This document shows, piece by piece, positions 61,992-62,090 of a stretch of DNA of 64,000 nucleotides. Within the stretch, counting starts at the first letter, position 1; every line of letters starts with the position of its first letter. Both the position numbers and the translations under genes were made by a program. Under the pieces are notes generated by a model that saw nothing but the letters and a program-made list of their open reading frames with translations, was not told the origin of the DNA and made no database searches. Source of the stretch: Escherichia coli (GTDB lineage: Bacteria; Pseudomonadota; Gammaproteobacteria; Enterobacterales; Enterobacteriaceae); NCBI RefSeq assembly GCF_003334355.1, contig NZ_QOWP01000003.1. One strand, 5' to 3'.

Positions 61992-62061
61992 AGATGTTGT
62001 TCTGCCAATGTTATGCCGCTGCACCCTCAACTTACGTTATCCCAACTTGTGACTGTTATTC

Positions 62062-62090
62062 GGCGCTCCACGGAGCGCCTTTTTTTCTTT
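62062..62090 (+). terminator. Rho-independent terminator of malEFG (GGCGCTCC/GGAGCGCC then TTTTTTTCTTT)
   Basis: 8-bp GC-rich stem with 2-nt loop and long T-run about 70 nt after malG stop. Confidence 0.85.

Follow-up and report, generated by a model that had tools for sequence, protein, structure and literature searches.

The 3′ untranslated region of malG in Escherichia coli matches the known Hfq-associated small RNA MalH and carries a conserved seed

INTRODUCTION

Type II 3′ UTR-derived small RNAs, such as CpxQ, SdhX, SroC, NarS, OppZ and RaiZ, are cut from the 3′ end of a parent mRNA and carry a 5′ monophosphate; they use the terminator of the parent, their seed is conserved, and they are regulated together with the parent operon, whose output they extend (PMC9438474). 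MalH of Escherichia coli belongs to this class of RNase E-processed, 3′ UTR-derived Hfq small RNAs and probably shares these features, but it differs from the other type II RNAs in locus, seed and targets, is unusually transient in LB, and has a main proposed output, increased LamB through decreased MicA, that is indirect (PMC8081044). A second small RNA from malG's 3′ end, MicX of Vibrio cholerae (Davis & Waldor 2007), is likewise Hfq-associated, regulates mRNAs of outer-membrane proteins and undergoes RNase E maturation; however, it is transcribed from a promoter of its own within malG, does not depend on mal induction, is ∼190 nt long when processed and has other targets (PMC8081044, PMC9438474). 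A 2022 review of 3′-end-derived small RNAs groups MalH with the RNase E-processed RNAs and draws a comparison with Vibrio MicX (PMC9438474). MicC, RybB, MicA and RseX also resemble MalH, in that they pair in ompC/ompA 5′ UTRs and cut porin synthesis with Hfq (PMC8081044), but these RNAs come from stand-alone genes with their own promoters (sigma-E promoters for RybB and MicA), whereas MalH is carbon-source-controlled and mRNA-derived.

The biology of MalH has been described in some detail. Hfq CLASH recovered MalH, and northern analysis revealed a short RNA with a transient peak at OD600 ∼1.8 (Iosub et al. 2020 eLife, PMC7213987); primer extension then yielded a length of 104 nt (Iosub et al., RNA Biol 2021;18:914, PMC8081044). 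MalH is a processed rather than a primary transcript, because it is degraded by a 5′-monophosphate-dependent exonuclease (TEX), while the primary transcript RybB is not (PMC8081044). The level of MalH follows that of malG, with ∼35-fold induction by maltose, and longer malG-containing intermediates are seen; the dependence on RNase E in E. coli was deduced from the sensitivity to TEX together with Salmonella TIER-seq, and stabilisation by Hfq was proposed by the authors (PMC8081044).

Pulse over-expression of MalH followed by RNA-seq reduced ompC, ompA, ptsH, rseA and MicA, and OmpC- and OmpA-GFP reporters were regulated by MalH in a seed-dependent manner that compensatory mutants rescued partly; similarly, polysome profiling found ∼37% less ompC on polysomes with MalH (PMC8081044). 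The physiological effects at native levels of MalH are small. In a chromosomal double seed mutant grown on maltose, MicA increased by ∼30% and lamB decreased by ∼20%, while ompC was unchanged; the authors hedge their physiological conclusion because this mutant is also impaired in the processing of MalH (PMC8081044). No pairing between MalH and MicA was found, and chimeras of MalH with ptsH/ptsI were reported, for which activation was speculated and a separate ptsH-pairing region was marked (PMC8081044). MalH was also detected on a northern blot and recovered by RIL-seq, with 38 unique targets (Bar et al. 2021, PMC8175672), and RIL-seq in Klebsiella pneumoniae found a MalH orthologue with an overlapping binding site (PMC11347178).

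We examined a stretch of 64,000 nucleotides of E. coli DNA (RefSeq assembly GCF_003334355.1, contig NZ_QOWP01000003.1), called the window below, in which an earlier note, made from the sequence by a reader without tools, had proposed a candidate Hfq-binding, 3′ UTR-derived small RNA between the malG stop codon and a GC-rich terminator with a U-tract, and had pointed to northern blots under maltose induction and to Hfq RIL-seq data as checks.

RESULTS

The malG 3′ UTR is identical in sequence to annotated malH

Comparison of positions 60117–64000 of the window with E. coli K-12 MG1655 (NC_000913.3) revealed no mismatch over 3884 bases. The annotation of NC_000913.3 places the ncRNA malH (b4807, ‘small regulatory RNA MalH’) at 4242531..4242633 on the complement strand, and the annotated sequence of 103 nt is found, exactly, at 61984–62086 on the + strand of the window. 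The interval is thus almost certainly MalH itself, the Hfq-associated small RNA cut from the malEFG mRNA's 3′ end. Since it is identical to an annotated and published RNA, the finding is a known one, and nothing is new in its discovery here. The window and E. coli K-12 agree in the sequence and locus of MalH, in its overlap with the malG stop codon, in its terminator and seed, and in its predicted pairings with ompC, ompA and OhsC; the sole discrepancy with published MalH is the length, which is 103 nt in the annotation versus 104 nt by primer extension.

The proposal of an Hfq-binding small RNA from the 3′ UTR was therefore correct, since RefSeq malH was recovered in published Hfq CLASH and RIL-seq experiments, although the earlier note called the RNA a candidate and did not identify it as one described before. 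Both checks had in fact been made: published northern blots detect a short, transient, maltose-induced transcript (PMC7213987, PMC8081044, PMC8175672), and MalH is present in the Hfq RIL-seq data (PMC8175672).

In the ORF list of the window, malE (58198–59388), malF (59527–61086) and malG (61101–61991) lie on the + strand and are followed, on the same strand, by xylE (62363–63838); malG, which is also annotated in the identical K-12 sequence in RefSeq, is the last gene of malEFG, and its mRNA is the parent of MalH. The stop codon TAA of malG is at 61989–61991, and the last 8 nt of the gene (5 nt of sense codons and the stop codon) lie inside MalH. After the stop codon, 70 nt precede the terminator hairpin, and the U-tract ends at 95 nt. 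Thus, the sequence ahead of the terminator is non-coding, as had been noted, but is shorter than the ∼100 nt given for it; similarly, the proposed interval of 61992–62090 was in the right place but had the wrong ends, as the RNA starts at 61984 or 61988, inside malG, and ends at 62086.

Upstream of malG, the malE–malF intergenic region (59353–59522) contains two REP-type palindromic units, with a match to Rfam naRNA4 (RF02564) of 67.4 bits on the minus strand at 59452–59522 (gathering score 59.5) and weaker matches at 59353–59430. These units are presumably classic REP elements that stabilise the upstream malE segment of the mRNA.

Rfam contains a MicX model. A scan of positions 57000–64000 against Rfam 15 (E ≤ 10) yielded neither a family for MalH nor a match to MicX in the MalH interval. 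A match to TarB in this interval was attributed to chance, as it scored 18.7 bits versus a gathering score of 80 (E = 6.6).

The 5′ end of MalH is heterogeneous and lies 4–8 nt inside malG, at 61984 or, alternatively, at 61988. The consensus for cleavage by RNase E is reportedly RN|WUU, as attributed to Chao et al. 2017. Judged from the sequence, the end at 61984, which is that obtained by primer extension, is a poor fit to this consensus, while that at 61988 is better: GG|UUA at 61986–61990 of the + strand, a candidate RNase E site that would generate the alternative end, fits the motif at R(−2), W(+1) and U(+2) and is thus a partial match. In the literature, a potential RNase E site has been placed 4 nt downstream of the primer-extension end (PMC8081044), and the coordinates of MalH have been given as 4,242,531←4,242,629 or 4,242,633 (Bar et al. 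2021, PMC8175672).

The terminator of malEFG is conserved and is the 3′ end of MalH

MalH ends in a Rho-independent terminator on the + strand, which is composed of a hairpin at 62062–62079, GGCGCTC-CACG-GAGCGCC (7 pairs, 6 of them G–C, and a 4-nt loop), and a U7 tail at 62080–62086 (TTTTTTT in the DNA); this terminator forms the 3′ end of both the malEFG mRNA and MalH. A consensus scan of 61000–64000 reported 7 terminator-like sites compared to 3.6 ± 1.6 in shuffles, and so by itself constitutes weak evidence, but the MalH terminator and the xylE terminator (63849–63876) are the two strongest of the 7 sites. Moreover, the stem folds and is retained by all 27 aligned species, with 98.9% of cells paired, and it covaries: two pairs are altered on both sides in 11 sequences, in which GGCGCTC becomes GGCGGCC. 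The GC-rich terminator with a U-tract that had been noted after malG is thus confirmed both by the scan and by the conservation of the stem.

Hfq-binding modules of small RNAs are said to have been defined by Otaka 2011 and Ishikawa 2012. The combination of the U7 tail with a U-rich element, UUAUUC, directly 5′ of the hairpin (62056–62061, + strand) is a feature of the Hfq module in type II 3′ UTR-derived small RNAs and is present in MalH; this element is plausibly part of the Hfq-binding module.

A presence/absence cassette, which consists of xylE and its flanks (∼62087–63878), has its left boundary exactly where the U-tract ends. In E. albertii, an Escherichia sp. and some of the E. coli strains that we checked (e.g. 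locus L086 of our set), …GGAGCGCCTTTTTTT runs straight into ACTCCCGCTTCAGCC, the end of the convergent gene psiE, whose stop codon in L086 shares the final 2 T of MalH. We considered that the terminator might also serve convergent psiE in strains that lack xylE, and did not adopt this idea, as the minus-strand hairpin is followed by GAAUAACAG, with no U-tract. In the window, at 63849–63884, the xylE terminator, CAGCACGCCG…CGGCGTGCTG followed by a T-run, adjoins the stop codon of convergent psiE (TTA on the + strand, 63882–63884), an arrangement that mirrors that of the MalH terminator and psiE in strains without xylE.

The seed of MalH is conserved across Enterobacterales amid variable flanks

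To describe the conservation of MalH within E. coli, we searched complete genomes by megablast with positions 61700–62400. Matches were found in 5423 of 5426 genomes; MalH is present in these 5423, with an identity of at least 99% in 5369 of them. At least 80% of the 61700–62400 segment is covered in only 3625 of the 5423 genomes, in some cases owing to IS1 insertions.

Beyond E. coli, we scanned species for loci anchored on MalG, using one genome per species, and obtained 80 Enterobacterales loci. The seed core TGCCACTGCA, with at most 1 mismatch and no more than 300 nt from the malG stop codon, was found in 48 of the 80 species, compared to a background of 0.2% among 631 equally long chunks of the same loci. 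This mismatch-tolerant search with its background control was used in place of a strict regular expression, GCCRCTGC, which under-counts (42/80). Carriers of the seed core include Escherichia, Citrobacter, Enterobacter, Klebsiella/Raoultella, Kluyvera, Kosakonia, Leclercia, Cedecea, Serratia, Yersinia and Hafnia; in the same search near the malG stop codon, the core was not found in Providencia, Photorhabdus, Limnobaculum or Edwardsiella. The form of the seed in most other genera is AUGCCACUGCA, which is an exact complement of UGCAGUGGCAU in E. coli ompC, while E. coli and some Yersinia have G instead of A at the position corresponding to 62017, resulting in one G·U pair with ompC.

An alignment of 27 species is composed of conserved islands, namely the seed, a second box (box 2) and the terminator, with variable linkers and lineage-specific insertions between them. 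This pattern of islands and linkers is the signature of a small RNA, and, judged from the search and the alignment together, the seed is conserved beyond the expectation for a neutral 3′ UTR.

The regions between the islands differ among lineages in several ways. Most Enterobacteriaceae have a TTTCATCG box right after the malG stop codon (alignment columns 12–46), in place of which E. coli and E. albertii have AGATGTTGTTCTGCCAATGTT; thus, MalH combines an ancient seed with a 5′ part that is specific to Escherichia. In several genera, ERIC-like repeats (…GAATCCCCAGGAGCTTAC…GTAAGTGACTGGGGTGAG…) have been inserted into the malG 3′ UTR, 100–250 nt after the stop codon (L017, L020, L021, L024, L040, L056, L057, L060, L068 and L075). 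In several of these loci (e.g. L017, L020 and L056), the repeat stands between seed and terminator, so that the small RNA would either gain >100 nt or have its seed uncoupled from its terminator; the insertion is upstream of the seed in K. oxytoca (L040) and in L024. Citrobacter loci (L015, L016, L019, L022, L041–L043 and L046) have a short GC hairpin, GCCCGGnAACGGGC, directly 5′ of the seed, and Yersinia ruckeri and Y. nurmii have a different hairpin 5′ of the seed. Such hairpins ahead of the seed could act as 5′ protective structures of the processed small RNA.

The seed pairs with ompC, ompA and OhsC better than expected by chance

The main seed, UUAUGCCGCUGCACCCUCA, is at 62011–62029 on the + strand. 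The fold of the 103-nt MalH has an energy of −22.1 kcal/mol (z = −0.93) and, apart from the terminator, is no better than the folds of shuffled sequences, so that the seed is largely unpaired; indeed, most of it is single-stranded in the centroid structure. We evaluated pairing by sliding 22-nt segments of the MalH body over K-12 leaders and comparing the energies with those of dinucleotide shuffles. This procedure replaced an unconstrained fold of full-length MalH with the ompC leader, which gave a physically meaningless duplex of 95 nt.

The duplex between MalH 62011–62029 and ompC −66..−38, obtained by searching ompC from −100 to +30, has an energy of −30.1 kcal/mol compared to −17.8 ± 2.0 kcal/mol in shuffles, none of which (0/100) did as well (z = −6.0). 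As published, this duplex comprises two stems around a 10-nt bulge, with MalH contributing ∼62011–62023 to stem 1 and 62024–62029 to stem 2 of the pairing in the ompC 5′ UTR. The stem-2 region of ompC is also where MicC pairs, whereas stem 1 of MalH uses a different site (PMC8081044). The seed also pairs with the extreme 5′ end of the ompA mRNA (−129..−114; −25.8 kcal/mol, 2/100 shuffles) and with nucleotides 1–20 of OhsC (−30.0 kcal/mol, 0/100 shuffles). OhsC contains a 12-nt perfect complement to MalH 62020–62031 (0/300 shuffles), while the longest perfect Watson–Crick run is uninformative for ompC (equalled in 164/300 shuffles) and ompA (32/300), because the E. coli seed pairs through a G·U and a bulge; in these cases the relevant tests are those based on energy.

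Both the energies and the conservation of the seed support the reported conclusion that pairing of the seed with ompC and ompA lowers mRNA and translation upon over-expression. With respect to OhsC and the pts mRNA, chimeras have been reported and the complementarity is confirmed here; any function of these pairings is putative.

Box 2 is complementary to the ptsH–ptsI spacer

Box 2, AACUUGUGACUGUU (also given as AACTTGTGACTGTT), is at 62044–62057 on the + strand and is conserved across the Enterobacteriaceae in the 27-species alignment. Its core, ACUUGUGACUG (62045–62055), is an 11-nt perfect complement of the ptsH–ptsI spacer (positions 745–755 of L085), a match attained in 3/300 shuffles. 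The target site lies 22–12 nt before the ptsI start codon, immediately 5′ of the Shine–Dalgarno sequence AAGG. Furthermore, the exact 12-mer AACTTGTGACTG occurs in the loci of 18 other species, once in each and always downstream of malG.

We regard it as possible, but doubtful, that box 2 is a functional second seed that pairs with the ptsH–ptsI spacer next to the ptsI Shine–Dalgarno sequence. If it were, the 3′ fragment of malEFG would directly tune the synthesis of PTS enzyme I, and through it the phosphorylation of EIIA-Glc and inducer exclusion of MalK. Pairing beside the ptsI Shine–Dalgarno sequence would make repression the more natural prediction, in contrast to the published speculation on activation. 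Box 2 and its ptsI site provide the only mildly new angle at the MalH locus.

DISCUSSION

We considered whether the interval might be only the operon terminator with an inert decay intermediate, which the hairpin and Hfq protect and which has no selected regulatory role. The phenotypes at native levels are weak and are confounded by the processing defect of the mutant (PMC8081044), many mRNA 3′ ends bind Hfq (PMC9438474), and the terminator scan is not very specific (7 sites versus 3.6 ± 1.6), all of which would fit with an inert fragment. However, the 10-nt seed persists, with at most 1 mismatch, in 48 of the 80 species amid indels, ERIC elements and hairpin insertions; the duplex of seed and ompC is 6 standard deviations better than shuffles; and compensatory mutations in the reporters restore regulation in part (PMC8081044). 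An inert decay product is unlikely, given that the seed is conserved amid flanks rich in indels.

Two further explanations concern the nature of the RNA, and we give each of them less weight than an inert fragment. MalH might be a primary transcript with its own promoter in the last part of malG, in the manner of MicX in Vibrio or DapZ in Salmonella, as would be suggested by the promoter of MicX at the same genomic position (PMC8081044, PMC9438474) and by RNA-seq coverage in Klebsiella, described as support for ‘expression of an independent entity’ (PMC11347178). This origin is improbable given that MalH is sensitive to TEX and RybB is not, that its level tracks malG and that malG-containing intermediates exist (PMC8081044); a scan of 61000–61984, by consensus only and thus weak evidence, gave no sigma-70-like site on the + strand. 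Least credible of all is a small protein. There are two ORFs that begin with ATG, 61994–62104 (36 aa) and 62013–62120 (35 aa), and an AAGG at 61984–61987 precedes the first of these ATGs, at 61994, by 6 nt. Nevertheless, both ORFs run through the terminator hairpin and U-tract, an ATG ORF of at least 30 codons occurs near the stop codon in just 17 of the 80 loci and differs among them in position and length, and the region from stop codon to seed is indel-rich and is replaced by TTTCATCG... in other genera. We therefore rejected a coding function, as the ORFs cross the terminator and are not conserved.

We favor the reading of the interval as MalH, a processed regulatory RNA, for which the reports and our computations would fit the following sequence of events. 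Transcription of malEFG, which depends on MalT and CRP, is reported to stop at the intrinsic terminator at 62062–62086. Decay of the mRNA, very probably by RNase E, is reported to leave a 3′ fragment of 103–104 nt that begins at 61984 or 61988 with a 5′ monophosphate. Hfq would stabilise this fragment through the U7 tail and the UUAUU before the hairpin; cross-linking to Hfq is reported, and the exact contacts given here are putative. According to the duplexes computed here and to published over-expression experiments, the single-stranded seed at 62011–62029 then pairs with the ompC 5′ UTR and with the 5′ end of ompA, with less mRNA and translation as the outcome upon over-expression. A fall in MicA, reported with modest effects, would relieve the repression of lamB by MicA, and the mal regulon would thereby boost its own outer-membrane maltoporin LamB in a feed-forward loop. 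Further matches are those of the seed to the 5′ end of OhsC, an antitoxin small RNA, and of box 2 to the ptsH–ptsI spacer; here, chimeras are reported and the complementarity is computed, and the roles are putative.

A genuine, experimentally validated small RNA was thus recovered from architecture alone by a reader without tools. MalH is an example of an operon that extends its regulatory reach through a piece of its own mRNA, and it links maltose uptake at the inner membrane, through MalFGK2, to the porins of the outer membrane, with less OmpC and OmpA and more LamB.
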